A stretch of DNA of 42,228 nt from a virus (IMGVR_UViG_648861009_000010), one strand, 5' to 3'; positions 4,755 to 38,555 are shown, counted from the stretch's first letter. Notes: generated by a model not told the origin, from the sequence alone. Made by a program: numbers and translations.

Positions 4755-7193
4755 GAAACTTCCCCATTGGTTGAAAATATGGCTCCTCCAACGCCAAGTG
4801 TATTTCGTGTTGTGCTCAACCTCAGAGGGCTGGAGTCAGAATTAGAATATCCTGTAGCAGAAATAAAAGATCCTCCACTAATAGTCAACTGCGGAACATC
4901 GGCTATATCTGAATAAGTTCTGTCAGCAACAGTATTATTTATAGCCACATATGATCCAAAAAAACTTCTTATTGTTTGGTTTTTAACTTTACTTCCTTCA
5001 ATGGTTATCCTACTACCACAGTCGGCAATAAATCCTGAATCTGCATCCAGCGTTGCATTCATAAAAGAAGCTTCAGATCTCTCTACATCAATCCATCTAA
5101 TATCTTTTGTGGGATTTGCACCAAATACATGACAAATATTAGAGTTAAACCTTACACCATCTTGGAGGTGCATTAATTTTTTTATATCTGTACCCCATAG
5201 CCTTGGAAAATTAACAGATGCTCCTGCATGGCAATCAAATCCCAGCTCAGCCCCTGAGATATCTACAGCCTTTCCTGAAATAACAGCACCAGTGTCTGCA
5301 TTAACGGCTGTTCCACAATTGCGCATATCATTACCAGCAACATCAACGCAACCCGCACCATCAATACGCACACCAAGTGCACATCCATAAAAACCTTTTT
5401 CAATATTTGGTTCAAGGACTTTACCACTTGTTTCTGCATCACTTTCTTCAACGTCATGTCGTCTTGCATCAACATATGCTGTATGAATGCAGGTTAATCC
5501 ACGATATGAGCAATGTATAGTTTTATGGTCGCGTATATTAACATTTGAACCATCTCTTACATTCCATCCTATATAACAATAGCTTGCACTTGACCCCTGA
5601 AAATCTGNNNNNNNNNNNNNNNNNNNNNNNNNNNNNNNNNNNNNNNNNNNNNNNNNNNNNNNNNNNNNNNNNNNNNNNNNNNNNNNNNNNNNNNNNNNNN
5701 NNNNNNNNNNNNNNNNNNNNNNNNNNNNNNNNNNNNNNNNNNNNNNNNATCCACGATATGAGCAATGTATAGTTTTATGGTCGCGTATATTAACATTTGA
5801 ACCATCTCTTACATTCCATCCTATATAACAATAGCTTGCACTTGACCCCTGAAAATCTGCTTTTAACATTATAAATACAATTAACTGACGCAACCGTACT
5901 CTCTGTGCACCGTTCAAACTTGCTTACAGGCATTGATGCCTTGACATTATTTACCAGTTGCAGGGAAGAGTATCTGCTATAAGAAAAATCACATACGTAA
6001 TACCCTTCTGGCATATATGCAGCAACACTTTCCTCATCAGGAGCACATCCGGTATGATATGCACTAATTTTTGCACCAAAACTACCATGAATTCCAACGT
6101 AGAACTTTCGAGCACCTGAATACGGATAGAAATTAAGTTCAGCTTTTTGAGTTACAATAAATGCACAAACATCGCTATCATCTCTATTTTCTTCGATCTG
6201 AATAGCAAATACAGGACTTTTTGCTGCATCGCAAATGTAAAATAAATACTTGTATTCGTAATACGTTCTAACGATTTTAGTAAACAAACGAGTGTCAGAG
6301 AAAACCACTGAGTCTTCTGATGTTATTTTAATCCAAGACAAATCAACACCTGAACTGAATTCAATTTGATAGTTGATAATATGCCCGGTCTTAATTCTTA
6401 TTTCGCAGAAAGCATTACCACCATCCCACATAGGTCTCATTGACTGGGCTGCAATGATTGCATCTTTGAGTGTAGGGTAATCACCCCATTCGCCAACAGT
6501 AATAACAAAAGTATAATATGAGTTAAAAACAGCGGCATTTTTGCCTTTGGATATCAACTCCTTAATCATAAAAATATTATCTTCGTAATCACAAGGAGAA
6601 ATTATATCCCTCATTTTGCTTTGAAATGTTCGTTGTCTTGCCCCGCTTCCTGACGGTATAAACCAACCAAAACCACCAACAACCCCGGCGATTGCAGCAT
6701 CGACATAATTACGCATTGAGCGATTATTTACAGCGTCCTGCTCAAATGATGGATCTGCAAGGTTAGAAATTTTGTTTTGCTTTGCATCGTAATATTTTGC
6801 AAGCAAAGATGGTTTCATCAATGCACGTCTGAACCACCCAAAACATCGCTGGATCAGCATCGTCAGGTAGTCAAATGCATCTTCATGAACTTCGGGGAAA
6901 AATTTTCCCTGATTGCGAAGATCAGTCTCCTGCACCACATCAAGCACACGCTCTATCGTAATTCGCCAGCCAGCAGCAAGCGGCGACGGGAGAACCACTT
7001 CACCGCCACTATAAGTGCCCGCTCCAGTTACCTTATAACCGGTATCCAGAACCAATTCTGTTACGTTCCCGTTCAGGTCAGACACCTGAACAACCAGGTC
7101 GGTTTTTTTGAAAATACGGAAGGTATACGGAAATGATGTCGTAACGCCGTTACCGGTGTATTCGTTGTGGTCAACTTCGGTTGAGACCGTCAT
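4751..7193 (-). CDS. Tailspike: T7-fibre-type N-terminal adaptor domain plus C-terminal parallel beta-helix domain; reading frame broken by gap and frame change (ORFs 5790-7193 and 4751-5917)
   Basis: N-terminus MTVSTEVDHNEYTGNGVTTSFPYTFRIFKK resembles podovirus tail fibre/tailspike anchor domains; C-terminal part has beta-helix-like repeats (NCGTAVNADTGAVISGKAVDISGAELGFDCHAGAS); SD GGAG 7 nt before ATG at 7193; 111-bp exact duplication flanks the N-run. Confidence 0.6.
5608..5748. other. Assembly gap (141 N) inside the tailspike, flanked by 111-bp exact duplicates (5497-5607 and 5749-5859)
   Basis: Identical sequence atccacgatatgagcaatgtatag...ccctgaaaatctg on both sides of the N-run. Confidence 0.95.
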
Positions 7194-7297: not shown

Positions 7298-7312
7298 TTA
7301 CCTTTCAGGTAA
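7298..7312. promoter_or_regulatory. Operator-like palindrome TTACC-TTTCA-GGTAA in the divergent tailspike / SOS-gene intergenic region
   Basis: Perfect 5-bp inverted arms; identical 16-mer ATTACCTTTCAGGTAA also at 26830-26845; half-site TTACC at 7248-7252. Confidence 0.55.
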
Positions 7313-7349
7313 TTTGCAAAACGTGCTGGATAGCAAACAAATTATTTGA

Positions 7350-7369
7350 TACTGTATATTTATACAGTT
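7350..7369. promoter_or_regulatory. LexA (SOS) box
   Basis: taCTGTatatttatACAGtt, a perfect CTGT-N8-ACAG with AT-rich spacer, 20 bp upstream of the ATG at 7389. Confidence 0.75.
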
Positions 7370-7388
7370 ATTGCATGGAGAAGATAAG

Positions 7389-7646
7389 ATGCAGCAGTAT
7401 CACTATCCACTGGAAGACGGATTTACCGAAAGGATTCACACGCCGGGAGGCGTCAGGTCACTGGTGGAGGGATCGCACTTGATGAAATTACTCCGGGATC
7501 TCGATAAGGATGGATTTAATGTCGATGGCCCACTTGCCGAACTGACTGCACTGATTAACTACGTCACCAGCTCACAGATGTCTATGCGGGATCTGCAAAC
7601 ACATCTCGACTATTGTGCCGAACAATTACGAAAACAAACCAGATAA
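7389..7646 (+). CDS. Small SOS-controlled protein, paralog of the C-terminal domain of the downstream BRO-N protein; candidate antirepressor
   Basis: 85 aa from ATG with SD GGAG 8 nt upstream; aligns with the 7947-8672 product C-terminus (LLRDLDKDGFNVDGPLAELT...RDLQTHLDY vs LLNQLQEDGHDVSGAAAELT...RDIQTHAEY). Confidence 0.65.
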   Translation: MQQYHYPLEDGFTERIHTPGGVRSLVEGSHLMKLLRDLDKDGFNVDGPLAELTALINYVTSSQMSMRDLQTHLDYCAEQLRKQTR

Positions 7647-7677
7647 GGTTTGCAATTACCAAATGGAGTGCTTATAT

Positions 7678-7692
7678 TTACCTTTGCGGTAA
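7678..7692. promoter_or_regulatory. Operator-like palindrome TTACC-TTTGC-GGTAA
   Basis: Perfect arms; abuts a TTTACA -35-like hexamer; half-site TTACC at 7655-7659. Confidence 0.5.
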
Positions 7693-7783
7693 ATTTACAT
7701 CGCACTCCTCTTGTGCCATAGTAATCGGGCACTGGCAAAATCCAGTGCCGGGATTGGCGTCCCGGGTTACTAAGTGGCGCATA

Positions 7784-7805
7784 CCACGCCAGACGTGGTT
7801 TTTTT
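7784..7805 (+). terminator. Rho-independent terminator-like hairpin in the 300-bp untranslated spacer
   Basis: ccacg-ccaga-cgtgg followed by 7 T; preceded by two more perfect hairpins (7728-7749, 7748-7765). Confidence 0.5.
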
Positions 7806-7946
7806 ATGCGTTAAGCACAGCTATATCCGAATTATGGTGGGCTGGGCAGGGGTCCGAAAGGACGCCGGTACCACTTAGGCCGGTACGCCAACCTTGTCCA
7901 GTTCACCACCAGTAATTGGCGTTGCGGTGGTGATTAAAATCACTAA

Positions 7947-8672
7947 GTGGAGATAACCACCATGGCTAATGCTCAAACTGCCATCTTCAAATTTGAATCT
8001 GTTAACCCTATCCGTTCCATCATTATCGATGGCCAACCATGGTTTGTAGCCCAAGACGTTTGTAGTGCGCTGCGTATCCAAAACGTCACCCAAGCACTTG
8101 AAAAACTGGATGATGATGAAAGGTCTATGTTCAACATAGGGCATGAACATCGTGCAATTTTTGACAGCCGAGTAAAAGAGATCAACATCATCTCCGAGTC
8201 AGGCCTCTACACACTGATCCTCCGCTGCCGCGACGCAGTGACACCAGGCACTATCCCCTACCGCTTTCGTAAATGGGTTACAGGTGAGGTTCTTCCTCAG
8301 ATCCGCCGCACCGGAAGTTACATTAAAAACTCGCTCCCGCAGGAAGAACGCATAAAGATAGTTGCCGACCAGGTAGCCAACGCCACAGCATCAGCAGTGA
8401 TGCAGGCAATGAAGATAGAGAACAAAACCTACAGTGCCCCACTGAAGCCCGGCTACCGCAGCCTGATTCATTCTCCGTCTGGTGTTCTCGGCCTGACGGA
8501 GAACTCACTGCTGATGAATCTGCTGAACCAGTTACAGGAAGACGGGCACGACGTATCGGGCGCGGCGGCGGAGCTGACCACCATGTTCTGCTACATTGTT
8601 GGTGTGAGCAAATGCCTGCGTGATATCCAGACCCACGCGGAGTACATCAACGACAAGGCTGGGTTCTTCTGA
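7947..8672 (+). CDS. BRO-N domain antirepressor-like protein (Ant-like)
   Basis: N-terminal BRO-N signature (IFKFESVNPIRSIIIDGQPWFVAQDVCSALRI ... SGLYTLILRCRDAVTPGTIPYRFRKWVTGEVLPQIRRTGSY); start may be ATG 7947 or 7962. Confidence 0.7.
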   Translation: MEITTMANAQTAIFKFESVNPIRSIIIDGQPWFVAQDVCSALRIQNVTQALEKLDDDERSMFNIGHEHRAIFDSRVKEINIISESGLYTLILRCRDAVTPGTIPYRFRKWVTGEVLPQIRRTGSYIKNSLPQEERIKIVADQVANATASAVMQAMKIENKTYSAPLKPGYRSLIHSPSGVLGLTENSLLMNLLNQLQEDGHDVSGAAAELTTMFCYIVGVSKCLRDIQTHAEYINDKAGFF

Positions 8673-8744
8673 CGGGCGGCGGCACAGGGATGTGCCTTTA
8701 AATAATTCTGTACAGATTGCAGACTGTGGGTGAATAGCGTACTA

Positions 8745-8759
8745 TTACCTTAAAGGTAA
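8745..8759. promoter_or_regulatory. Operator-like palindrome TTACC-TTAAA-GGTAA overlapping the moron promoter/RBS
   Basis: Perfect arms; directly abuts SD GGAGG of ORF 8772; putative -35 TTGCAG (8717) and -10 TACTAT (8740) upstream. Confidence 0.55.
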
Positions 8760-8771
8760 AGGAGGCGCGAT

Positions 8772-8939
8772 ATGACAGCGTTGAAAAATCGTACTCAGCA
8801 CAATGAACAAGCCAAGCAATGCTGGGATGTCATTGGAAAAGTTATGCTTGGCCGCGCAAGCAAAGAGCGCGACAAGGATATGGTTTACCAGACAGGAACA
8901 TCTTTCAGCGACTTCAAGGCGGCATTTCGCTCCAAATAG
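8772..8939 (+). CDS. Small protein (55 aa), unknown function, first gene of an AT-rich moron
   Basis: ATG with SD AAAGGAGG at 6-nt spacing; not in the ORF track (<60 aa); MTALKNRTQHNEQAKQCWDVIGKVMLGRASKERDKDMVYQTGTSFSDFKAAFRSK. Confidence 0.55.
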   Translation: MTALKNRTQHNEQAKQCWDVIGKVMLGRASKERDKDMVYQTGTSFSDFKAAFRSK

Positions 8940-8959: not shown

Positions 8960-9400
8960 TTGAAGTTTAACATTAGAATATCTAATAGTTTTCTACATGG
9001 GGAAAGCAACACCCCTTTCGCTGTAGACGGACCTTTCCTTACTGATGATGAAATAAAAATCATACAAAGTTTTTTAGAGGATGTTGCCAATGGAAGGGCG
9101 CTTGTTGGAAAAAACAAGCCCTCGTGGGTTGATGATAACCATGATAAAATTCCCGGCTCAGACAATTATGAGCAAGAGAATTATTGGCATTATCATTGTG
9201 GGCCAACATGGTATCCAAACACATTTAAGAATTATACCATTAACTTAAATTTCAACCCTGGCGGAAGGCATTCTAATGAATGCATTCATTATGCAAAAAA
9301 TGATAATGAAATTGTCATTGTTGGATTTTCAAGAGAACACATACCTTTCCTTTCATCAGATGGAAACAACAATCCGCTTTTTAATGATGAAGAAGAATAG
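8960..9400 (+). CDS. Unknown 147-aa protein with His/Cys-containing motifs, second gene of the AT-rich moron
   Basis: Open frame with no internal Met; likely TTG start at 8960 with SD AGGAG 6 nt upstream (the ATG at 8819 overlaps ORF 8772 and lacks an RBS); motifs YWHYHCGP and HSNECIHYAK; all four Arg codons are AGA/AGG; strong terminator follows. Confidence 0.55.
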   Translation: MKFNIRISNSFLHGESNTPFAVDGPFLTDDEIKIIQSFLEDVANGRALVGKNKPSWVDDNHDKIPGSDNYEQENYWHYHCGPTWYPNTFKNYTINLNFNPGGRHSNECIHYAKNDNEIVIVGFSREHIPFLSSDGNNNPLFNDEEE

Positions 9401-9692: not shown

Positions 9693-10106
9693 TTATAAAG
9701 ATGACTGATATTTTACAACTCTGTTCATGGCATCTTTTTTCACCGAGCTGATATCAGTTCTTATTTTGGCTTCGTCATTACTGCTTATCATGCTATTAAT
9801 TTTTTGCACTGACATGCCGTTTCTTTCAGCCATTGCACATACAGCAGCATCGTATGAAGAACTCGCTGCGATGGATATCACCTTGTTACACTCAAACACA
9901 GCACCTTCAGCAATATCAGATGCCGATGAGGCTGGCTTGGTATAAGTCTTGACGTAGTGATCAATACAACTATCCTTCGCCGTCTTGGCAAGAGAAAAAT
10001 CCATTTTAACTTTGTCGCAATATGCCTTATCAACACCGTCATAAACATCATAGGATGTCGAGCAAGCGGATATCAAAAATACCGATAACAGCAATAATTC
10101 CTTCAT
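9693..10106 (-). CDS. AT-rich phage lipoprotein; candidate superinfection-exclusion / lysogenic-conversion moron
   Basis: 137 aa; lipobox LISAC after a hydrophobic signal; SD AGGA 6 nt upstream; terminal gene after the ejection-protein genes; uses AGA for Arg. Confidence 0.6.
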   Translation of the reverse strand: MKELLLLSVFLISACSTSYDVYDGVDKAYCDKVKMDFSLAKTAKDSCIDHYVKTYTKPASSASDIAEGAVFECNKVISIAASSSYDAAVCAMAERNGMSVQKINSMISSNDEAKIRTDISSVKKDAMNRVVKYQSSL

Positions 10107-21018: not shown

Positions 21019-21476
21019 NNNNNNNNNNNNNNNNNNNNNNNNNNNNNNNNNNNNNNNNNNNNNNNNNNNNNNNNNNNNNNNNNNNNNNNNNNNNNNNNNN
21101 NNNNNNNNNNNNNNNNNNNNNNNNNNNNNNNNNNNNNNNNNNNNNNNNNNNNNNNNNNNNNNNNNNNNNNNNNNNNNNNNNNNNNNNNNNNNNNNNNNNN
21201 NNNNNNNNNNNNNNNNNNNNNNNNNNNNNNNNNNNNNNNNNNNNNNNNNNNNNNNNNNNNNNNNNNNNNNNNNNNNNNNNNNNNNNNNNNNNNNNNNNNN
21301 NNNNNNNNNNNNNNNNNNNNNNNNNNNNNNNNNNNNNNNNNNNNNNNNNNNNNNNNNNNNNNNNNNNNNNNNNNNNNNNNNNNNNNNNNNNNNNNNNNNN
21401 NNNNNNNNNNNNNNNNNNNNNNNNNNNNNNNNNNNNNNNNNNNNNNNNNNNNNNNNNNNNNNNNNNNNNNNNNNNN
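21019..21476. other. Assembly gap (458 N) within the head-tail joining genes
   Basis: N-run; the upstream minus-strand gene runs into it. Confidence 0.95.
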
Positions 21477-24550: not shown

Positions 24551-24843
24551 TCCTGTTCACTGGCCTCTTTGGCCATCTTCAAATACTGTTCAGGGCAATG
24601 CGCCATAACGCGCTGAAACAGTTCCAGCGCCAGATTGCGTTGCCCCTCATTAAATGCCATTGCCATAGCGTCCATCGGTGAGATAGCGGAAAACACACGG
24701 CCTTTCTCCAGCACCGACCAGACAACGCGACGCCCCTGTTCACTGCTCATGACAAAGCGAATGTCATCAATTTCACGCTGCGCCATGTCACGTTGCTTAC
24801 GGGCGTTTTCTTCTTTCAGTTGATCGTCTTCGTAATCTGTCAT
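24547..24843 (-). CDS. Small head-assembly protein, unknown function
   Basis: 98-aa ORF translationally coupled between portal and scaffold. Confidence 0.5.
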   Translation of the reverse strand: MTDYEDDQLKEENARKQRDMAQREIDDIRFVMSSEQGRRVVWSVLEKGRVFSAISPMDAMAMAFNEGQRNLALELFQRVMAHCPEQYLKMAKEASEQE

Positions 24844-26519
24844 TGTGATTGCCCACCCTGACCACTAACTGCATTCGCCATAGCTGACAACACACTCGGA
24901 TCCGAAGTTTTAGCTTCGCTTAGCGTCTTGGCCCCCTGTGCCGCCGCCATCCCCATCGCCATCATTTGTTGCTGCTGTTGTTGCTGTGCCCGTTGCTGGC
25001 GAGCCTGCTCAACCTGTTCCTGCGGAACAATGACGGTTGGAGACACTCCGGACATATCAGCGAATGCATCGATCGCCTGATCAACGTTGAGTTTGTCGAG
25101 AGCTTCTGGTTTCGCTTGCGCAAGTTGACCAATGAAGTTAACCGTGGACGCCAGACTGGACAGGCCGATAGACTTCTGCGCCTGAGCCATGACGGAAATG
25201 TATTCGACCTTCAGGGGCATGCCTTCCATCGCGTCAGGCGGTGGCGGCAGCATGTTTTTGCGCACCATCATCGAGAAAGCGCGGTCAATGAGAGGATTAA
25301 GACATTCGTCGTTCAGACGCTCCAGAACCGGCCCCAACATCAGAAGTTTTTCTTCTTTCATTTCGATCACCGCTTCAACAGGCATCGAGCGGGTATTGAT
25401 GTTCTGCAACATCATGAACAGATCGACAAAGTAGGCGCTGTTAATGATTTGACGAGTGTCCTGAATGTCTGCCACCAAATCTGCTGTACTGGGGTTAACC
25501 AGATAAGCAGGCCTGAAGCCATCCTGACCAGTAATCTGATCGATATACGTGATGTCGCCAGGAAGAAGGGAGGCGCGCTGATTCTTGAGGGAAGTCGGAG
25601 CAACCATCGGCGGATTGGTGGCTTTATCAATCAACTGCGACTTGCGCTTCTGGAGAAGCTGCAATGCCTTAACAGGTCCAAGCGCCAGCATACCCGGGCA
25701 TGATGATCCATAAACATCTTCGCCGTTAACTTCCCAGCGCGGAGCCATAATTGGAAACTCATCGAATCCGGACTCACGCAACAACTTGTCGTTATCGCCA
25801 CCAACCTCGTAATAAACCGATTTGAATGGCTTGTTCTTGCTATCCAGCTTCGATGTATCGCGGTCAATGTTCGGGTAAACCGAATGCATCACTTCAATCC
25901 ACTTCTCGTAGGTGCCGCTTTCCCACATGCTTTTTACGGATTCGCTGACGTTATTTAGCCCGAACTCCTGAACAAGCTGACGAACAGTCATAGAGAACTT
26001 GCGAAAACAGGTGTCCACACTGCCACGAGGTGAGTTAGCTAGGTAGTAACTGCCTATCGGGAATGGCATTGTGCGAATGATGTCCTCGTCATCCTCCAGC
26101 ACTGCCATTGCACCAGTGCTGTATGTGCCGAGGCTTCCGTATAACTGCGGCAGAGACTGATAGAGATTCGAGTTATTGAACATATCGTTCATGCGGTTCT
26201 GCACCGCCTCAAGCCACAACTTAACAGGGCCATAATCCATCATTTCAGGATCTGGCGTAGCCAGGCGAAACCACGGACGCGCGGGGCTTGTGATGCCTGA
26301 CATCATGCCGCTGGCGAGAGTGCGCGCCGCCATAGTCCCGGTCGAATCAATAATGCGTGTATTGCGTCGATCGTTACGGTTGACCTCAGAAGTCAGAAAG
26401 CGGGAACCACGTGGGTTGATGTAATCACTCAACTCGCGCCAGTGCGGCTCGAACGACTGACGCTCGCTTTCAAGTTGTGCGAACTGTTTGTTCAATCGCT
26501 CTTTAGTTGTTTCCGCCAT
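24840..26519 (-). CDS. Portal (head-to-tail connector) protein
   Basis: 559 aa; position after terminase and before scaffold; sequence style of T7 gp8-type connectors. Confidence 0.75.
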   Translation of the reverse strand: MAETTKERLNKQFAQLESERQSFEPHWRELSDYINPRGSRFLTSEVNRNDRRNTRIIDSTGTMAARTLASGMMSGITSPARPWFRLATPDPEMMDYGPVKLWLEAVQNRMNDMFNNSNLYQSLPQLYGSLGTYSTGAMAVLEDDEDIIRTMPFPIGSYYLANSPRGSVDTCFRKFSMTVRQLVQEFGLNNVSESVKSMWESGTYEKWIEVMHSVYPNIDRDTSKLDSKNKPFKSVYYEVGGDNDKLLRESGFDEFPIMAPRWEVNGEDVYGSSCPGMLALGPVKALQLLQKRKSQLIDKATNPPMVAPTSLKNQRASLLPGDITYIDQITGQDGFRPAYLVNPSTADLVADIQDTRQIINSAYFVDLFMMLQNINTRSMPVEAVIEMKEEKLLMLGPVLERLNDECLNPLIDRAFSMMVRKNMLPPPPDAMEGMPLKVEYISVMAQAQKSIGLSSLASTVNFIGQLAQAKPEALDKLNVDQAIDAFADMSGVSPTVIVPQEQVEQARQQRAQQQQQQQMMAMGMAAAQGAKTLSEAKTSDPSVLSAMANAVSGQGGQSQ

Positions 26520-26533
26520 TTCAATGACTCCGG

Positions 26534-26740
26534 TTACTGACCAAGCAGCGTTTTACCGCTGGTCTTAGCGGTTGATGTGTCGCCCTGAGAACCGGTAAGC
26601 AGCGTAGAACTACGACCAGCAGCAGCGCGACGGCGACGAGTTTCTTCGTCGCGGGCATCAACAACGGCGGCATCCTGCTCCTGTGGTGCTGCCTGAACTT
26701 CTGGTGTTGCAGGCACTGATGGTGAGCTACCCATGCACAT
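26534..26740 (-). CDS. Small low-complexity protein upstream of portal
   Basis: 68 aa, SD GGAG 8 nt upstream, coupled to portal; preferred over the overlapping 79-aa frame. Confidence 0.4.
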   Translation of the reverse strand: MCMGSSPSVPATPEVQAAPQEQDAAVVDARDEETRRRRAAAGRSSTLLTGSQGDTSTAKTSGKTLLGQ

Positions 26741-26830
26741 ATCAATGACTCCGTACGCAATTAAATTATTACCAATTTAACCATATATGATTTATTTATC
26801 GTAGATAGTTGACATTTAACGCGCGAATTA

Positions 26831-26845
26831 TTACCTTTCAGGTAA
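26831..26845. promoter_or_regulatory. Operator-like palindrome TTACC-TTTCA-GGTAA
   Basis: Perfect arms; identical to the 7298 site; between the head operon start and the tRNA region; TTGACA hexamer 18 bp upstream on the + strand. Confidence 0.55.
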
Positions 26846-27167
26846 CTAAAGAGTTCATTCCGGTTACTAACCTGACTGGCCTGTCGTTAAATTGAACAGG
26901 TGGAGTGAGCTTTTATTTTGAGCAGTACGGCGTATGGCACATGCGACGATAGCGGTCTGGATACGTTTAAGTGGCACCCTCCCTTGCTCGGGCAAACGAA
27001 CCAGGTAGCCGGAATGTGCAAGTCGAGCGGTTTTATTCCGCGCACGGGGATTCACCATCCCGGCGATTCGGTGTGACGCCTCGGAAGAGACGAGGGTACA
27101 ACGATGAGAGCATTTATGGAGCCGCGACAAAGTGTGGCGCCTTAACAGGCTAAGTGCTCTCAGCGTT

Positions 27168-27244
27168 GTGGCATTAGCTCAGTTGGACAGAGCAACCGCC
27201 TTCTAAGCGGTTGGTCGCAGGTTCGAATCCTGCATGCCACGCCA
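27168..27244 (+). tRNA. tRNA-Arg (anticodon UCU), phage-encoded
   Basis: Cloverleaf folded by hand: acceptor GTGGCAT/ATGCCAC, D-stem GCTC/GAGC, anticodon stem ACCGC/GCGGT with loop CTTCTAA, T-arm GCAGG-TTCGAAT-CCTGC, discriminator G, encoded CCA. Confidence 0.85.
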
Positions 27245-27287
27245 GAATCACGCCTAAGGACCGTGATACCAGAAGTTCCAGGTGCTT

Positions 27288-27330
27288 GGCGGTGATGGTT
27301 TCCCTTGAAGGACTATCACCGCCCTTTTTA
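27288..27330 (+). terminator. Terminator-like hairpin downstream of the tRNA
   Basis: 9-bp stem ggcggtgat/atcaccgcc followed by CTTTTTA. Confidence 0.5.
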
Positions 27331-27407
27331 CAGCAGGACGCCATTGCGATGACTTCATGCTGTAAACCCGTACAGCCACGGAAGGCATAACTCATTGCTT
27401 CCAGTTC

Positions 27408-27431
27408 GCCCGGTTCGCCGGGCATTTTTTT
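27408..27431 (+). terminator. Rho-independent terminator
   Basis: gcccgg-ttcg-ccgggc hairpin followed by ATTTTTTT. Confidence 0.75.
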
Positions 27432-27442
27432 AAGGTGAGATT

Positions 27443-27833: not shown

Positions 27834-27861
27834 CAGCCAGCCGATGAGCTGGCTTTGTTTT
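27834..27861. terminator. Bidirectional terminator hairpin between convergent ORF 27443-27814 and TerL
   Basis: agccagc-cgatga-gctggct stem-loop followed by TTGTTTT. Confidence 0.6.
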
Positions 27862-27904: not shown

Positions 27905-29380
27905 TTAAGCATATGGATCGTAATCTGTGATGGCCTTGCCTTGCTGGTTCTGCTGCCCGGGAATTCGCAGACGCTTCGACACAGGGAACGCAAACGTCAG
28001 CAGTAGCGCATCGCCTTTACCAGGAGAACGCCCAAGCCGCTCCTTGATATCTTCCTTCGGTTCGATAACGATTTTACCGTCCACTCGAACTTTGTACTCT
28101 GCCGCAGACAGGTCGTCCGCTGTTTCCTGGTCATCCAGCATGCCGCCCAGCCTCAGCCATGTCTTACATGAGTTGAACATCTCCCCACGCTTGTTAAGCA
28201 TCTGCGGGTCAGTGGACGCACCGCCGAACGGAACAAGTTGCCATGTACGTCCCCAGCCATCACCGATTGACTTCAAACCGGTTCCGTAACCGAAGTCGAT
28301 GAACACCGCGTCAGCCTGATACTGGTCTTCAAAGTCAGCGATACGCTTCGCCATAATCAGATCGTCGGTTGTCTTGTTGCCAGTCCATAGCACCTTACTG
28401 TGCAACCCCTGCCGCAGGTATATCACAGCGTCATCAACGCCTGAGTATGCCGGGTCAACACCGATTATCACCGGAGCATGCGCCACCTGCGCAGCGGTTA
28501 CCACCCGTTTCATTGCCTCATCAGTAAGACCGGTAGGGATAAACTGCAATTCAGATGCATCAGGGAATATGCCGCGCACACGGATTTTAACGAAGTCGCT
28601 GTCTTCCCCGTAGTCATCAACCCATTTCTGCAACTGCTGTTTGTTAGTGCCTTCCACCGTCCGGCTGTCAATCTGCGCAGTTTTCCAGCGGTGTTTATAT
28701 TTGCGGAAACATTCGCGGAAACGCCCGGTGTTACGTGTAGGGTTTCCGAATGCCACCCAGATAATCTCAGTGTCTTCGTCCGTCAGCGCACCCTCTGCTA
28801 CCTCCCACACCAGATCGGCAATGTTGGATGCTTCGTCGAATACCACGATGATGCGTTTGCGCTCGTTGTGTAGTCCGGCGAATGCCTCAGTGTTGTGCTC
28901 AGACCAGGGGATTGCGTCAGCTCGCCACCGCTTGTCGTGCCCAGGGTCATTGCTGTACATCGCGGTAGCGGTACAGGTAAACCAGTCTTTCGTGATAGCA
29001 AGGTTCGACCACTTGATAATTTCCGGCCAGGTCTTCGTTCGTAGCTGGTTGTCGGTGTTGGCGGTCACCACGACCTTACAATCCTCGCAAGTGGACATGC
29101 CCCAGTTGATCAGCATTGAGATGAATGCGGATTTACCAATACCGTGACCCGAAGCGCGTGCCAGCATAAGCGGCTGATAGCGCGTCTCTGGATTCTGCAG
29201 GTGATCACGTATCTCTCGGAACGCATCAGCCTGCCACTGACGTGGGCCGGTAGCATGTGCCAGTTCAGTCCCCTCTTCCCCCCACGGGAACGCATAGAGG
29301 GCATAGCCAAGCGGATCGTGAGTGAACCCTGCAATATCCTCGATCAACTGCTCTTCAGGAGATAACGCTGTATCTGTCAC
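27905..29380 (-). CDS. terL: Terminase large subunit
   Basis: 491 aa; P-loop-like ASGHGIGKS; acidic nuclease-domain motifs; overlaps TerS by 4 nt. Confidence 0.85.
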   Translation of the reverse strand: MTDTALSPEEQLIEDIAGFTHDPLGYALYAFPWGEEGTELAHATGPRQWQADAFREIRDHLQNPETRYQPLMLARASGHGIGKSAFISMLINWGMSTCEDCKVVVTANTDNQLRTKTWPEIIKWSNLAITKDWFTCTATAMYSNDPGHDKRWRADAIPWSEHNTEAFAGLHNERKRIIVVFDEASNIADLVWEVAEGALTDEDTEIIWVAFGNPTRNTGRFRECFRKYKHRWKTAQIDSRTVEGTNKQQLQKWVDDYGEDSDFVKIRVRGIFPDASELQFIPTGLTDEAMKRVVTAAQVAHAPVIIGVDPAYSGVDDAVIYLRQGLHSKVLWTGNKTTDDLIMAKRIADFEDQYQADAVFIDFGYGTGLKSIGDGWGRTWQLVPFGGASTDPQMLNKRGEMFNSCKTWLRLGGMLDDQETADDLSAAEYKVRVDGKIVIEPKEDIKERLGRSPGKGDALLLTFAFPVSKRLRIPGQQNQQGKAITDYDPYA

Positions 29381-29973
29381 TGATTACCATCCTGACGTTC
29401 TTTGAGTCGCTTCCTGGCTGCCGCTATGCGATCAGCAATTGTCACATTCACATTAACATCCAGGCGTTCTTTGAATGCGTTGACGTCGACGTGCTTACCA
29501 ATCAGTTCGAGGTTCTTCACCTTGTCAGGCCATTTAATTTTTTTGAGGATTGTCTCTATCGAATCCTCGTTCATGTTCATGATGGTCGATGACAGATCAA
29601 AGCCACTAAGCGTAGTGCGCCAGATTTTCGGCCACTCGCGGATTGGCTTAAGGCTCCCATCGTCGTTGAGGATATCAATCACGTCCATCTGGTCGATCTC
29701 CACCAGGCGCATGAGAACGTAATCGGCACTGACGCGCATTCGTTTGTTGCGCTCCTCCATCAACTCGGCAATCCGTTTTTGAATGCGTTCATCGCGCATC
29801 ATGACACTGGCTTTAACTGCCGCTGTATTTGGGGAGAATCCTGCGTTAATCGCTGCCTGAGTCTGGTTTTCAGGCGTTTTGATGTATGACTGGCAATAAG
29901 CCTCCTGCATTGCGGTTAGTGGCTTAAATTGCGTTGATTTGCGTTTATAGGTTTTAGGTTCAGCAGGCATCAT
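29377..29973 (-). CDS. terS: Terminase small subunit
   Basis: Start taken at the internal ATG at 29973 (MMPAEPKTYKRK...) with SD AGGGTGG; the track ORF extends to a TTG at 30051; coupled to TerL. Confidence 0.65.
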   Translation of the reverse strand: MMPAEPKTYKRKSTQFKPLTAMQEAYCQSYIKTPENQTQAAINAGFSPNTAAVKASVMMRDERIQKRIAELMEERNKRMRVSADYVLMRLVEIDQMDVIDILNDDGSLKPIREWPKIWRTTLSGFDLSSTIMNMNEDSIETILKKIKWPDKVKNLELIGKHVDVNAFKERLDVNVNVTIADRIAAARKRLKERQDGNQ

Positions 29974-29990
29974 AACCACCCTGGTAATTG

Positions 29991-30005
29991 TTACCGTTGT
30001 GGTAA
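29991..30005. promoter_or_regulatory. Operator-like palindrome TTACC-GTTGT-GGTAA just upstream of terS
   Basis: Perfect arms, 18 bp upstream of the ATG at 29973; an everted GGTAA-TTG-TTACC overlaps at 29983-29995. Confidence 0.5.
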
Positions 30006-30083
30006 TAGTACCATGCAAAATAAAGCCGCCATAGTTGGCGGCAGTATTCAAAACCCATCAAATTCATCATGCATAATCTACTC

Positions 30084-30704: not shown

Positions 30705-31269
30705 GGTTAACCTCCTGCGGCGGTTCCGGTAGCGGCATCCAGTGAGTTGCCTGCTCAATACCATTACCCGGCTTAATCGTTGCATCTCCGCGCCGAAAGG
30801 TGCTTCCGGTATAGCGTGCGGAGCATATTAGCGGTTCAACCAGAGAGCTATCGAAATTCACCGAAATAAGCACGTTCTGGCCCTTTTCAGGCATTTGGTC
30901 ACTACAGCTTATCCAACTATCCGGAGTTCCCGGAGAGTTGCCATTTACATCGAAGTTTGGCTCTGCGTCCTGAACCAGGAGGATGTAACCATTCTTGGCT
31001 GTATCAAGTTCTAACGCCTCGGTGACGGTGCCGAAATAGCGATTACCTAAATCAGCATCACAAGTGCTTACATCAATGGAAACTTCCATGCCTTCGATTA
31101 ATTCTGGCAAGTTGTAAGTTTGGTTTACAGGCTCTGCTTCCAGCGATGCCAGAGCAATTCGTGCCAGTTCTTCCGCTTCTTCTGCTGGCAGTACAACGTT
31201 GCTACCAGGTCCGTATGTTTCGCGCCACTGCTTGATTGTCAGCAGTCGCTCTTTGGTAATAGTGGTCAT
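30697..31269 (-). CDS. Hypothetical phage protein (possible DUF551-type C-terminal domain)
   Basis: 190-aa ORF in the nin-like region; family call from recollection. Confidence 0.45.
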   Translation of the reverse strand: MTTITKERLLTIKQWRETYGPGSNVVLPAEEAEELARIALASLEAEPVNQTYNLPELIEGMEVSIDVSTCDADLGNRYFGTVTEALELDTAKNGYILLVQDAEPNFDVNGNSPGTPDSWISCSDQMPEKGQNVLISVNFDSSLVEPLICSARYTGSTFRRGDATIKPGNGIEQATHWMPLPEPPQEVNRG

Positions 31270-31272
31270 GTG

Positions 31273-31422
31273 TTAGTCCTCTGTAGCAGGTGATACGCCG
31301 TAGTTGCATTCTTCATAGAATATGTCTCTGCCTATTTCTTCGGCATCCTCTGGCGTGTCTGCTTCAAACTCAACAACCTTGCAATCATTAAATCCTTCGA
31401 TAGTCACGATGTACTTAGCCAT
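31273..31422 (-). CDS. Small acidic protein (49 aa)
   Basis: ATG with strong SD AAGGAG; MAKYIVTIEGFNDCKVVEFEADTPEDAEEIGRDIFYEECNYGVSPATED; the longer 91-aa track ORF has no RBS. Confidence 0.5.
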   Translation of the reverse strand: MAKYIVTIEGFNDCKVVEFEADTPEDAEEIGRDIFYEECNYGVSPATED

Positions 31423-36035: not shown

Positions 36036-36159
36036 TTACGGTCATTTTGTGCTGACACAAAAAAAAGATCAACCACATTTGGTTTTTTATTACCTTTGAG
36101 GTACGAATAGATATGAAAAGACCGCCGGGTGGCGGTCTACAGAGGGTTGTAGCTGGATA

Positions 36160-36390
36160 TCATGAGTAGAAGAAGTATGCCAGTTCTGCTTTTGAGCGCA
36201 ACCATTGTCTTGTTTTACAGGCTTTAAAAAGCCCATTCATCAATACTTTACCTGGCATTTTGCGCTTACCTGTTAAGTGAGTCTGGATATAATGACTCGT
36301 CGTTCCGGCTTCCTGTGCGAAGGCTTCACGCTCATCCGGAGTAAGTGCAAGCCAGTGCTTTTTGAAATCGAAATGTCCGTTATCGCTCAT
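36160..36390 (-). CDS. Cro-like HTH regulator
   Basis: 76 aa; HTH-like segment EAFAQEAGTTSHYIQTHLTGKRK; divergent from the repressor gene across an operator-rich region. Confidence 0.5.
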   Translation of the reverse strand: MSDNGHFDFKKHWLALTPDEREAFAQEAGTTSHYIQTHLTGKRKMPGKVLMNGLFKACKTRQWLRSKAELAYFFYS

Positions 36391-36426
36391 AGCTATTGCC
36401 TGATATTTATTTCAGATAATAAATAT

Positions 36427-36489
36427 TCACCCATAAGGTAACAAAAATCAAGGATAGTTACCTATGGGGTGCATTTACCTGTTGGGTAA
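36427..36489. promoter_or_regulatory. Immunity-region operator cluster (three TTACC-N5-GGTAA-type sites)
   Basis: TCACC-CATAA-GGTAA (36427-36441), TTACC-TATGG-GGTGC (36458-36472), perfect TTACC-TGTTG-GGTAA (36475-36489); an imperfect site TTACC-TTTGA-GGTAC lies at 36090-36104. Confidence 0.6.
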
Positions 36490-36544
36490 TATTGCTTTAA
36501 ATTGAATCATCTACTGATTCATATATGAGGCGATTTTCCAGAAA

Positions 36545-37129
36545 ATGAAAAGTATCCAGGACGTCCGCAGGCAAAATCTCAACGACTTGATCGACCGTGA
36601 ATTCAATGGTGTTCAGACGCGGATGGCTGAAAAACTTGGAACTCAGGCAAATCTGGTAAACCGCTGGGCTCTTGGCAAGAAGGTTATCGGCGACCAGGTT
36701 GCGCGAAAAATTGAAGCTGCCGCCAATAAACCCCGTAACTGGCTTGATATCGATCGCTCGCTTTCTCAGGAAGGTTTTCAGCCTGTCGGCCCTAGCGACA
36801 TTGGTCAGCTGGCGGCTCACAACCTGGAACGCTGGATGAGCGAAAGCCGCGACCTTTCAACGCAGGGAAAACTACACCGCGCATCCGGCGTCGCCCAGGT
36901 GACAATCAGCCGCCTGTTAAACAATGAGGTCAGCGTTTCCATTTCCACCCTGGAGAATGTTGCATCCGCATTCGGGCGTCACGGCTATGAATTACTGATT
37001 CACCCGCACGACCCTGCGACCATCAACTATGATCGCTCGCGCTACGCATTGTTACCCGAAACCGAGAAAGCAAAGATCGAAAGTTACATTGAATTTGTCA
37101 TCAACCAGAACGAAAAAAACAAACAATAA
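36545..37129 (+). CDS. Prophage repressor candidate: two XRE-type HTH-like segments, no LexA-like (S24) cleavage domain
   Basis: 194 aa; HTH-like TRMAEKLGTQANLVNRWALGKKVIGDQVARKIEAA and RASGVAQVTISRLLNNEVSVSISTLENVASAFG; no Ala-Gly / Ser-Lys peptidase motifs; own terminator. Confidence 0.55.
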   Translation: MKSIQDVRRQNLNDLIDREFNGVQTRMAEKLGTQANLVNRWALGKKVIGDQVARKIEAAANKPRNWLDIDRSLSQEGFQPVGPSDIGQLAAHNLERWMSESRDLSTQGKLHRASGVAQVTISRLLNNEVSVSISTLENVASAFGRHGYELLIHPHDPATINYDRSRYALLPETEKAKIESYIEFVINQNEKNKQ

Positions 37130-37150
37130 AATCATACTTTTCAGTAAGTA

Positions 37151-37176
37151 AGCCGCCTTCTGGCGGCTTTTTTATT
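37151..37176 (+). terminator. Rho-independent terminator after the repressor gene
   Basis: agccgcc-ttct-ggcggct hairpin followed by TTTTTATT. Confidence 0.8.
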
Positions 37177-37186
37177 GCCTATACTA

Positions 37187-37201
37187 TTACCTAATGGGTA
37201 A
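37187..37201. promoter_or_regulatory. Operator-like palindrome TTACC-TAATG-GGTAA (pL-like region)
   Basis: Perfect arms, upstream of TTGACA at 37221. Confidence 0.55.
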
Positions 37202-37248
37202 TTTTTTTAACTCATATCTATTGACATCAAACCAAATACGCATAATTA

Positions 37249-37263
37249 TTACCTCAACGGTAA
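37249..37263. promoter_or_regulatory. Operator-like palindrome TTACC-TCAAC-GGTAA overlapping the -10/+1 of the early-left promoter
   Basis: Perfect arms; TTGACA 37221-37226, -10-like ATAATT about 15 bp downstream, ORF start at 37283. Confidence 0.55.
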
Positions 37264-37737: not shown

Positions 37738-38555
37738 ATCCGGGAATTTATTTCGATATCAGCAACGAGGACTACCACGCCGGTGACGGCGTGAGTAAGT
37801 CGCAGCTAGATATGGTGGCTAAGAACCCTGCCCTTCTGAAATGGGTGAAGGCTGCTCCGGAAGACGAAGAGAAGAAGTCTGCACTGGACATGGGTACTGC
37901 TCTGCACTGTCTGCTTCTGGAACCTGGAGAGTTTGACAAACGCTTCATCGTTTCACCGAAATTCGATCGTCGGACAAAACAAGGTAAAGCTGACGAAGAG
38001 GCATTTCTTCGTGATGTAGCGGATATGGGGATTACGGTACTTGATGCCGAGCAGTGGCGGAAACTGGAGCTGATGCGTGATAGCGCAATGGCTCACCCGG
38101 CGGCACGCTGGATGCTGGAAGCACCTGGTTACTGCGAAGCATCAATGTACTGGAACGATGAAGAGACTGGTGAGTTGTGCCGCATTCGTCCAGACAAATG
38201 GCTGAACGAGCACAACGTGATCGTCGACGTGAAAAAGGTTGCAGATATGGACCGTTTTGCACGCCACATCGAGGAATTCCGCTACCACGTGCAGGACGCA
38301 ATGTACCGCGAAGGCGCAATGAGGGTTACTGGTCAGCCGCATGGTTTTTTCTTTCTTGCCGTGAGCGAAAGCATTGATTGTGGTCGGTATCCGGTACGCG
38401 TGTTCGAGCTGGATGCGCCGGATGTCGATGCCGGTCACGATCTGTTCCGCCGGGATCTGAATACCTATCACGAATGCCGCATCAACGATGAGTGGGGCGG
38501 AGTGGAAATTATTAAACGCCCTGACTGGGCACGTAAACAGGATATGTACGTATGA
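37734..38555 (+). CDS. PD-(D/E)XK family exonuclease (RecE C-terminal-domain-like)
   Basis: 273 aa; IVDVKK motif in a D...(D/E)xK context; directly upstream of the annealase gene. Confidence 0.65.
   Translation: MNPGIYFDISNEDYHAGDGVSKSQLDMVAKNPALLKWVKAAPEDEEKKSALDMGTALHCLLLEPGEFDKRFIVSPKFDRRTKQGKADEEAFLRDVADMGITVLDAEQWRKLELMRDSAMAHPAARWMLEAPGYCEASMYWNDEETGELCRIRPDKWLNEHNVIVDVKKVADMDRFARHIEEFRYHVQDAMYREGAMRVTGQPHGFFFLAVSESIDCGRYPVRVFELDAPDVDAGHDLFRRDLNTYHECRINDEWGGVEIIKRPDWARKQDMYV

Follow-up and report, generated by a model that had tools for sequence, protein, structure and literature searches.

A stretch of viral DNA of 42,228 nucleotides (IMGVR_UViG_648861009_000010), referred to below as the window, was analyzed around a tRNA-Arg(UCU) gene and the region preceding it. 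The window is a phiV10/epsilon15-like (Uetakevirus) prophage, the genes of which were identified from annotated relatives. The 702 bases from a 68-aa gene neighboring the portal gene to an open reading frame (ORF) of the Gp49 family are 98% identical to phiV10, O157 typing phages 9/10, TL-2011b and ZX5. They contain, in order, a putative promoter overlapped by an operator, a conserved structured leader RNA of ~245 nt (26924-27168, + strand) with five helices, two pseudoknots and a long 3' stem, the tRNA gene, and two intrinsic terminators (Table 1). The tRNA lies on the strand opposite to that of the portal and TerL genes between which the locus is situated, and the 123-aa Phage_gp49_66 ORF, which starts 12 nt after the end of the second terminator, is the sole protein gene in its operon.

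The leader RNA was recognized through its homologues. Approximately 245 nt (roughly 26927-27174) are also ~80% identical to unrelated phages, namely the lambdoids cdtI, mEp460 and 2H10, and P7. More than 120 further copies were collected from IMG/VR by means of the near-invariant 19-mer of the central junction and reduced to 47 diverse cores, the alignment of which (A2) displays invariant blocks with variable arms between them and apparent compensatory changes. A helix model was drawn by eye from the alignment and then tested by pair counts. Standard pairs occupy 96.1% of 1394 cells, compared with 26-49% when the partners are slid by 1-3 columns, and changes on both sides are found in 13 of the 30 pairs (117 cells, versus 39 in shuffles). 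The covariation score of 0.264, compared with 0.118 after shuffling, was reached in 0 of 500 shuffles. Pseudoknot PK1 is without covariation support because it is almost invariant; in PK2, the pairing of CACC with GGUG becomes AACC with GGUU in the lambdoids. Since most copies had been fetched through the 19-mer, sampling was repeated via an independent anchor in helix P1. The exact 19-mer was present at ~115 of 120 loci; the other five depart from it at a single base, which is not part of the pseudoknot. Alignment A2 also served to build a covariance model, R1, which scored 149 bits on the window copy (E = 1e-46), 147 and 115 bits on copies outside the seed from a Stenotrophomonas phage and a Klebsiella Lastavirus, respectively, and 107-176 bits on copies in the genomes of 24 enterobacterial species.

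The 3' domain that follows the core is present in at least 79 of 110 unique copies. Among 15 variants of its stem, cognate strand pairs fold at -16.3 kcal/mol, compared with -12.1 kcal/mol for non-cognate pairs (permutation p < 1e-4), and in the fold of the window copy the last base pair uses G+1 of the tRNA. Two observations concern the sequence of this domain. The 3' strand of the stem (27146-27167 and homologues) reads UGCUCUCA or UGCUCUUU in most variants and is boxA-like, resembling boxA (UGCUCUUUA) and lambda boxA (CGCUCUUA); the string concerned, UGCUCU(U/C), sits within the covarying stem. At the apex, SPN1S (~1610-1740) and Stx2a_1447 (~2680-2810) carry an insertion of ~60 nt in which there are two hairpins resembling T arms, CUGG-UUCAAUU-CCAG and GUCCG-UUCGAUU-CGGAC; the RNA may thus contain tRNA-like modules or remnants of them.

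This evidence bears directly on whether an RNA is present at all. Were the region instead a small protein gene, as drawn in the mEp460 and Ayreon records, or a DNA site such as an operator array, a pac site or a single-strand origin, the "hypothetical proteins" annotated over it in some records and the RNase III site annotated on the other strand in epsilon15 would find an explanation. However, any given frame is open in at most 13 of the 47 homologous copies, and the variation in spacer length extends to all three phases. An earlier note on this DNA had likewise described ~300 bp ahead of the tRNA without a convincing ORF, which might hold a structured leader or small RNA (sRNA), and the covariation and covariance model bear out that guess. 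The compensatory changes also argue against a protein gene or DNA site, as do the many G.U pairs, which are C.A on the other strand and identify the + strand as the one transcribed. Furthermore, the RNA strand matches the orientation of flanking tRNAs, cI and downstream genes throughout the contexts examined. An explanation without RNA is thus hardly credible, and the leader is a real structured non-coding RNA on the + strand.

Table 1. Features of the window, numbered from its first nucleotide.
Feature	Position	Strand	Basis or remark
Putative repressor-controlled promoter	26809-26845	+	sequence reading; -35 TTGACA 26809-14, weak -10 TACCTT 26832-37
Operator palindrome TTACCTTTCAGGTAA	26831-26845		overlaps putative -10
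RNA core	26924-27098	+	47-sequence alignment A2, covariance model R1
Helix P1	26928-33 / 26943-48		
PK1	26937-42 / 27014-19		P1 loop GCACAU with AUGUGC
Helix P2	26956-60 / 27001-05		
Near-invariant 19-mer junction GGUAGCCGGAAUGUGCAAG	27004-22		
Helix P3	27027-30 / 27038-41		constrained fold of window copy only, no covariation basis
Helix P4	27047-50 / 27058-61		
PK2	27053-56 / 27070-73		P4 loop CACC with GGUG
Helix P5	27079-83 / 27091-95		
3' domain, long basal stem (CAACGAUGAGAGCA... / ...UGCUCUCAGCGUUG) with hypervariable apex	27099-27168	+	folds of window copy
tRNA-Arg(UCU), 77 nt, encoded CCA	27168-27244	+	ARAGORN; full-length match to Rfam RF00005
Terminator 1, intrinsic, 14-bp stem and T tract	27288-27333	+	hairpin 27288-27323, then CTTTTT
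Terminator 2, intrinsic, GCCCGG-TTCG-CCGGGC and ATTTTTTT	27408-27431	+	hairpin 27408-27423
Phage_gp49_66 family ORF (N4 gp49 / Sf6 gp66), 123 aa	27443-27814	+	Pfam PF13876, E = 1.8e-34; PHROG 322
Terminator 3, after 123-aa ORF	27835-27854	+	terminator scan
Portal	24840-26519	-	annotated relatives
68-aa gene, portal neighbor	26534-26740	-	annotated relatives
TerL	27905-29380	-	annotated relatives
TerS	29377-30051	-	annotated relatives
isrK-like RNA	7729-7805		67.7 bits (Rfam)
C4 antisense RNA	7830-7913		66 bits (Rfam)
Bro-N antirepressor ORF	7962-8672		

The RNA is widely distributed. A more sensitive search located it in 86 phage records, almost all without annotation over it, with carriers that include P1/P7/D6/SJ46/RCS47, Stx2a/Stx2c/Stx2k phages, phages of Klebsiella, Enterobacter and Salmonella, and two Stenotrophomonas phages. 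It is present in 1840 of 5426 complete E. coli genomes, about a third, at 1920 chromosomal and 554 plasmid places, and in 40 of these matches sampled across the ranking the only feature beneath the match was the adjacent tRNA. It was not found in CPS-53 of K-12. The RNA is modular and, according to R1, occurs as one copy per genome, no second copy on the pR side being returned by that search. Matches in Azonexus and in metagenome-assembled genomes were discarded as 18-mer matches arising by chance (10-15 bits), of which ~17 are expected in 596 Gb. epsilon15 (1549-1662) and the IMG/VR phage L171 (6959-7072) are natural deletion mutants of the locus: a remnant of helix P1 and the start of P2 (~45 bits) persists there, the core and tRNA having been lost and the terminator and Gp49-family gene kept. 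In the Klebsiella phage SopranoGao, a 61-kb Lastavirus, the copy (2435-2608, 115 bits) is located after the lysis genes near the genome end, with no repressor gene annotated within ~2.4 kb upstream, a context that misfits the early-leader pattern described below.

It should be noted that this family is missing from current resources. None of the 4227 models of Rfam 15 matched 26924-27167 even at E <= 10, none matched the RNA in 13 divergent loci, and nothing was returned over the leader in a scan of the whole window. No description was found in the literature or in PGAP/GenBank annotation, much subscription literature being outside the reach of the search, and the ZX5 paper is silent on the RNA-tRNA region. 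The Pas sRNAs were considered and rejected as a different RNA (~84 nt, terminator-ended, from the late region). A 2023 catalogue of short candidate phage RNAs (csRNA) covers motifs of <=151 nt only and could contain fragments of the RNA. Coding sequences called "hypothetical proteins" are drawn across it, mostly on the wrong strand, at 31040-31408 in mEp460, at 8668-8787 in Ayreon and in other records, and are probably mis-annotations. The family absent from Rfam and PGAP annotation is large and well supported.

Regarding the tRNA, ARAGORN reported exactly one across the 42-kb window, for Arg with anticodon tct, and the Rfam RF00005 model scored 73.3 bits against a gathering score of 29; several relatives in GenBank already annotate tRNA-Arg at the equivalent place. 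The canonical 77-nt tRNA(UCU) between TerL and portal, on the opposite strand and followed by two terminators, is therefore as the earlier note had it. The note's ordering of the locus, with the tRNA as its core and the upstream RNA as an accessory, has to be reversed. Among 129 copies of the RNA, a tRNA follows directly in 28, always Arg(UCU); a tRNA(CAT) precedes it in 18 copies of the P1 type, ~15 nt from its 5' end; and the remaining 83, in quite different phages, have no tRNA nearby, so that the tRNA is an optional passenger. It could still be proposed, as the framing of the note implies, that the RNA is a dedicated 5' leader serving the processing, stability or expression of the tRNA-Arg gene, since nucleotide +1 of the tRNA forms the last position of the 3' stem and the tRNA behind it never varies in identity. 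Against this stand not only the copies without a tRNA, which conservation and covariation argue are not decaying pseudogenes, but also phage P1, where the tRNA is upstream and a different one, and the lambdoid and Stenotrophomonas copies, which head protein-coding operons. This distribution largely refutes the proposal, which we regard as very improbable. Tied tRNA leader, small ORF and DNA site are together largely excluded.

The codon usage agrees with a supply function for the tRNA, within limits. All four arginine codons in the "moron" ORF ending at 9400 (146-147 aa) are AGA or AGG (AGA, AGG, AGG, AGA), and all three in the lipoprotein gene (9693-10106, - strand) are AGA, the C-terminal one included, as had been pointed out. 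With one ORF heuristic used for both the window and a 50-kb sample of the core E. coli chromosome, AGA amounted to 7.0 per 1000 codons in window genes versus 1.9 in the host sample (3.7x, Fisher p = 2e-8), and AGG to 4.4 versus 0.8 (p = 1e-7). The predicted excess over the host is thus real, and the codon-supply reading is reasonable on account of the commoner AGA. The part of the claim which tied the tRNA to accessory genes fares less well: AGA stands at 5.1 per 1000 in late structural genes and 8.9 in the other window genes, and its enrichment is phage-wide, not peculiar to the moron. The tRNA and its codon-supply logic are already known for such phages. The window gene is 98% identical in context to annotated tRNA-Arg genes, and in its use of AGA above the host level does not differ from phage rare-codon tRNAs such as the tRNA-Arg of O157 typing phages 9/10 and phiv142-3 or trnI of P1.

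Upstream of the RNA, the operator palindrome at 26831 and the TTGACA hexamer to its 5' side, both indicated in the earlier note, were placed in a wider pattern. The palindrome TTACCTnnnAGGTAA is dispersed across the window in 15 copies at <=2 mismatches, compared with 0.76 expected, at sites that include 7298, 7678, 8745, 26831, 34070, 34132, 36090, 36475, 37187 and 37249. A cluster at 36090-37263 surrounds a helix-turn-helix (HTH) repressor gene (36545-37129), and perfect copies are located at 7298, ahead of the isrK/C4-antirepressor module, and at 8745, ahead of the moron. Because the copies are far above chance and clustered around the HTH gene, the palindrome is taken as the operator of the prophage repressor; the epsilon15 record annotates a repressor site at the place equivalent to 26831. 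The C1 operators of P1 are likewise dispersed over the genome. The + strand unit ahead of the tRNA is probably repressor-controlled, and with the operator of that repressor over the putative -10 the tRNA is probably an early or derepressed gene and not a helper expressed in the lysogen. The distribution of sites suggests a multi-operon regulon that would take in both the AGA/AGG-rich moron and the unit of RNA and tRNA.

Several further features of the window were noted. A P1-type immI module (7298-8672), headed by the perfect operator at 7298, is present in this podovirus. A full-length match to the Hfq-binding sRNA STnc490 (Rfam, 146 bits) is located near the left end of the window, at 2146-2269 on the - strand. 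Runs of N at 1542-1930 (389 nt), 5608-5748 (141 nt) and 21019-21476 (458 nt) mask parts of the window, and ORFs called across them are artefacts, the real genes there being unreadable.

Comparison of the genomic contexts reveals a recurring order of repressor operator/promoter, RNA, terminator(s) and genes. Lambdoids of at least four repressor types display cI, a terminator, oL/pL and then the RNA, an order present in mEp460, cdtI, Ayreon, BUCT708 and several IMG/VR phages. In mEp460 the cI stop is followed by a terminator hairpin, a copy of the oR operator, the RNA, ~300 nt with a strong terminator, and the first ORF; cdtI has the same layout with other operators and a promoter, TTGACA-16-CATAAT, ~30 nt upstream of the RNA; and the depositors of Ayreon annotated "cI, terminator, promoter" at this place. 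A Stenotrophomonas phage presents cro/cI, TTGACG-17-TAAATT, the RNA, GCCCGGGCGCCCCGGGC with ATTTTTTT, and genes. Other IMG/VR phages carry CI-type repressors of at least four kinds just upstream on the strand of the RNA. In P1/P7 the RNA lies between trnI and ban; according to the P7 record, the tRNAs and ban are under the control of C1 operators, which are annotated there. Consensus sigma-70 promoters were found upstream on the RNA strand in 18 of 60 non-redundant contexts, and on the antisense strand in 2 of them. Of 41 non-redundant contexts, 33 have terminator-like hairpins on the RNA strand in the 600 nt downstream (60 sites), compared with 14 for upstream regions of equal size (18 sites) and 25 for the antisense strand (36 sites). 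No protein family is shared downstream among the contexts when flanking proteins are compared. Three phage architectures that are unrelated to one another have the RNA close to the promoter of early operons for which repressor control is annotated or inferred. In mEp460 and Ayreon Q is annotated and N is not, and no N-type arginine-rich motif was obvious by eye in the first pL ORF of either, this inspection not amounting to an exhaustive search for N. A 2025 paper noted N-less lambdoids close to 2H10, where involvement of a put-like RNA was only speculated; 2H10 carries the RNA.

These positions point to a new cis-acting leader for processive antitermination, a function to which we would give an even chance. 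The known precedent is the putRNA of HK022, ~70 nt with two stems, which acts in cis on RNA polymerase via the beta' zinc-binding domain without a protein factor and remains active once untethered from the transcript. By analogy, release of the repressor from the operator at 26831 would allow RNA polymerase to transcribe the leader, of which the five helices, two pseudoknots and 3' stem would fold while emerging from the enzyme. The folded RNA would then act on its own polymerase after the manner of put, rendering it resistant to pausing and termination, so that it could read through the terminators at 27288 and 27408 in the window and, in lambdoids, through a terminator that precedes the first pL gene. 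As cargo placed between RNA and terminators, the tRNA-Arg(UCU) would be made once the operon fires and would provide the decoder for AGA, which the phage uses ~3.7x as often as the host. Cleavage by RNase P at the 5' end of the tRNA would free the leader RNA.

A more specific likeness to put was found in helix P1. The lower helix of putL stem I comprises C10-G14/C30-G34 with a G12.U32 wobble, A9 before it, and the bulge C26-A27-U28-G29 directly 5' of the 3' strand. The lambdoid form of P1, A-CGGCG...CAUG-CGUCG, is identical in letters to this signature (~15 nt), with G.U at the third pair and the critical U28 in the bulge. The putL-like RNA of HK639 also has it, and putR keeps helix and wobble and lacks CAUG, as the put paper reports for putR. 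A relaxed P1 pattern matched the 8 kb of HK022 only at putL, with 0.07 matches expected. We treat the shared signature as a lead, given that it was noticed after the fact and that HK022 and HK639 do not count as independent cases. The likeness of the P5 loop GGAAGAG to the put of HK639 was dismissed as superficial, since it comprises loop and stem there and does not occur in HK022 putL.

A number of points weigh against antitermination, which is deduced from the position of the RNA and the grammar of its surroundings. Neither the immunity region of HK022 nor the complete genome of HK639 gave a match to R1, the put regions scoring <=5 bits even with filters off, and membership in the put family is consequently not supported. 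The P1/putL signature is suggestive at a significance that we estimate near 1e-3, and is short as well as post hoc. Each phage has one copy of the RNA, on the pL side only, compared with putL and putR in HK022, although the HK639 record, too, annotates only a single putL-like RNA. No call was made at 26809-26845 by the consensus promoter scan and the -10, TACCTT, is weak, for which reasons the window promoter is given as inferred. In 8 of the 41 contexts no terminator is found downstream, the enrichment of terminators is partly common to the antisense strand, and the P1/P7 copies have neither a 3' domain nor a terminator nearby. Finally, put has ~70 nt, whereas the leader RNA reaches 170-245 nt, contains two pseudoknots and has near-invariant junctions, a far greater degree of elaboration that would also fit a ribozyme or ribonucleoprotein (RNP).

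That last point leads to a stable non-coding RNA acting in trans, as a host-factor decoy, anti-defence RNA, RNP component or ribozyme, which would be the first product of derepression and be cut out by tRNA-processing enzymes. The double-pseudoknot fold and the 19-nt junction are typical of RNPs and ribozymes, the phage P1 context has no terminator to overcome, and a tRNA abutting the 3' end (28 copies) or ~15 nt from the 5' end (18 P1-type copies) would allow ends to be formed via RNase P and 3'-end processing. The hypervariable apex of the 3' domain and its T-arm-like hairpins in SPN1S and Stx2a_1447 are also in keeping with such a role. However, in lambdoids no 3' end is defined: the 3' stem is not immediately followed by a terminator or tRNA, and transcription proceeds into ~300 nt of leader. 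No partner protein is recognizable, no Rfam ribozyme or RNP matches, and a consistent position proximal to the promoter and upstream of terminators would not be needed. We regard trans action as doubtful, albeit the main competitor. Its stronger form, in which the RNA is no antiterminator but belongs to a new ornate class, either a ribozyme or a decoy or RNP by which a host factor is captured or a defence system neutralized, and is the first product of derepressed P1, Stx2, lambdoid and epsilon15-like prophages, freed by tRNA-processing enzymes, is somewhat less probable still.

The same positional evidence would be satisfied by a riboswitch-like leader which senses a metabolite, tRNA or host protein and conditionally controls termination or access of Rho, with the conserved unpaired junctions forming a ligand pocket. 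No known riboswitch family in Rfam matches, and since the terminators differ in sequence and distance, and the tRNA intervenes in the window, there is no conserved expression platform for alternative pairing. This is quite improbable, more so than trans action. Overall, there is a real chance that the RNA is categorically different from an RNA-only antitermination leader.

Should processive antitermination be correct, RNA-only processive antiterminators, so far represented by put and EAR, would gain a third class of distinct structure, and this RNA would be by a wide margin the most widespread of the three. It would explain expression of the early-left operon in N-less lambdoids, a gap noted by phage genomicists in 2025, and would place early expression of some Stx phages under a targetable RNA element. 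The carriers are classic model and medically relevant phages: P1/P7, the Stx2a/Stx2c/Stx2k converting phages, cdtI and phiV10/SPN1S. Whatever the function, a large RNA family unlisted in Rfam and PGAP is added, and several "hypothetical proteins" in GenBank are probably mis-annotations.

Among known systems, the put RNAs of HK022 and HK639 are nearest. They occupy the same position, in the leader of a repressor-controlled pL transcript of N-less lambdoids upstream of terminators, and the HK639 record places its "putL-like antiterminator RNA" downstream of pL. In both put and the leader RNA a hairpin loop takes part in a pseudoknot, with the partner strand upstream in put and downstream here. 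The two stems of put contrast with the five helices, two pseudoknots and 3' domain of the leader RNA, which, unlike put, is also found in podoviruses, P1 and a Stenotrophomonas phage. It is possibly a functional analogue of put, and possibly a distant, elaborated relative. Alongside its single putL-like RNA, the HK639 record lists an "M3-like RNA" (37910-37969) just after cII in the pR operon. With respect to lambda, the RNA is in the position of nutL, following the early promoter at a distance of ~30-45 nt, or ~85 nt in the window, and lying ahead of terminators. However, nut acts with N and Nus factors, no N being annotated in mEp460 or Ayreon, and the RNA is far larger than boxA plus boxB. 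The antisense immunity RNAs C4 of P1/P7 and CI of P4 (Rfam C4, isrK) are likewise small RNAs processed from repressor-controlled leaders of temperate phages, and a C4/isrK module is itself present at 7729-7913 in the window. They belong to another family with another structure; no Rfam clan match was obtained over 26924-27168 and no target repeats are evident in the leader RNA. GOLLD and ROOL are also phage-borne, ornate and sometimes adjacent to tRNAs, but the leader RNA is much smaller, occurs in gammaproteobacterial hosts and does not match their Rfam models. For an antiterminator RNA other than put, the EAR antitermination RNA provides the precedent.

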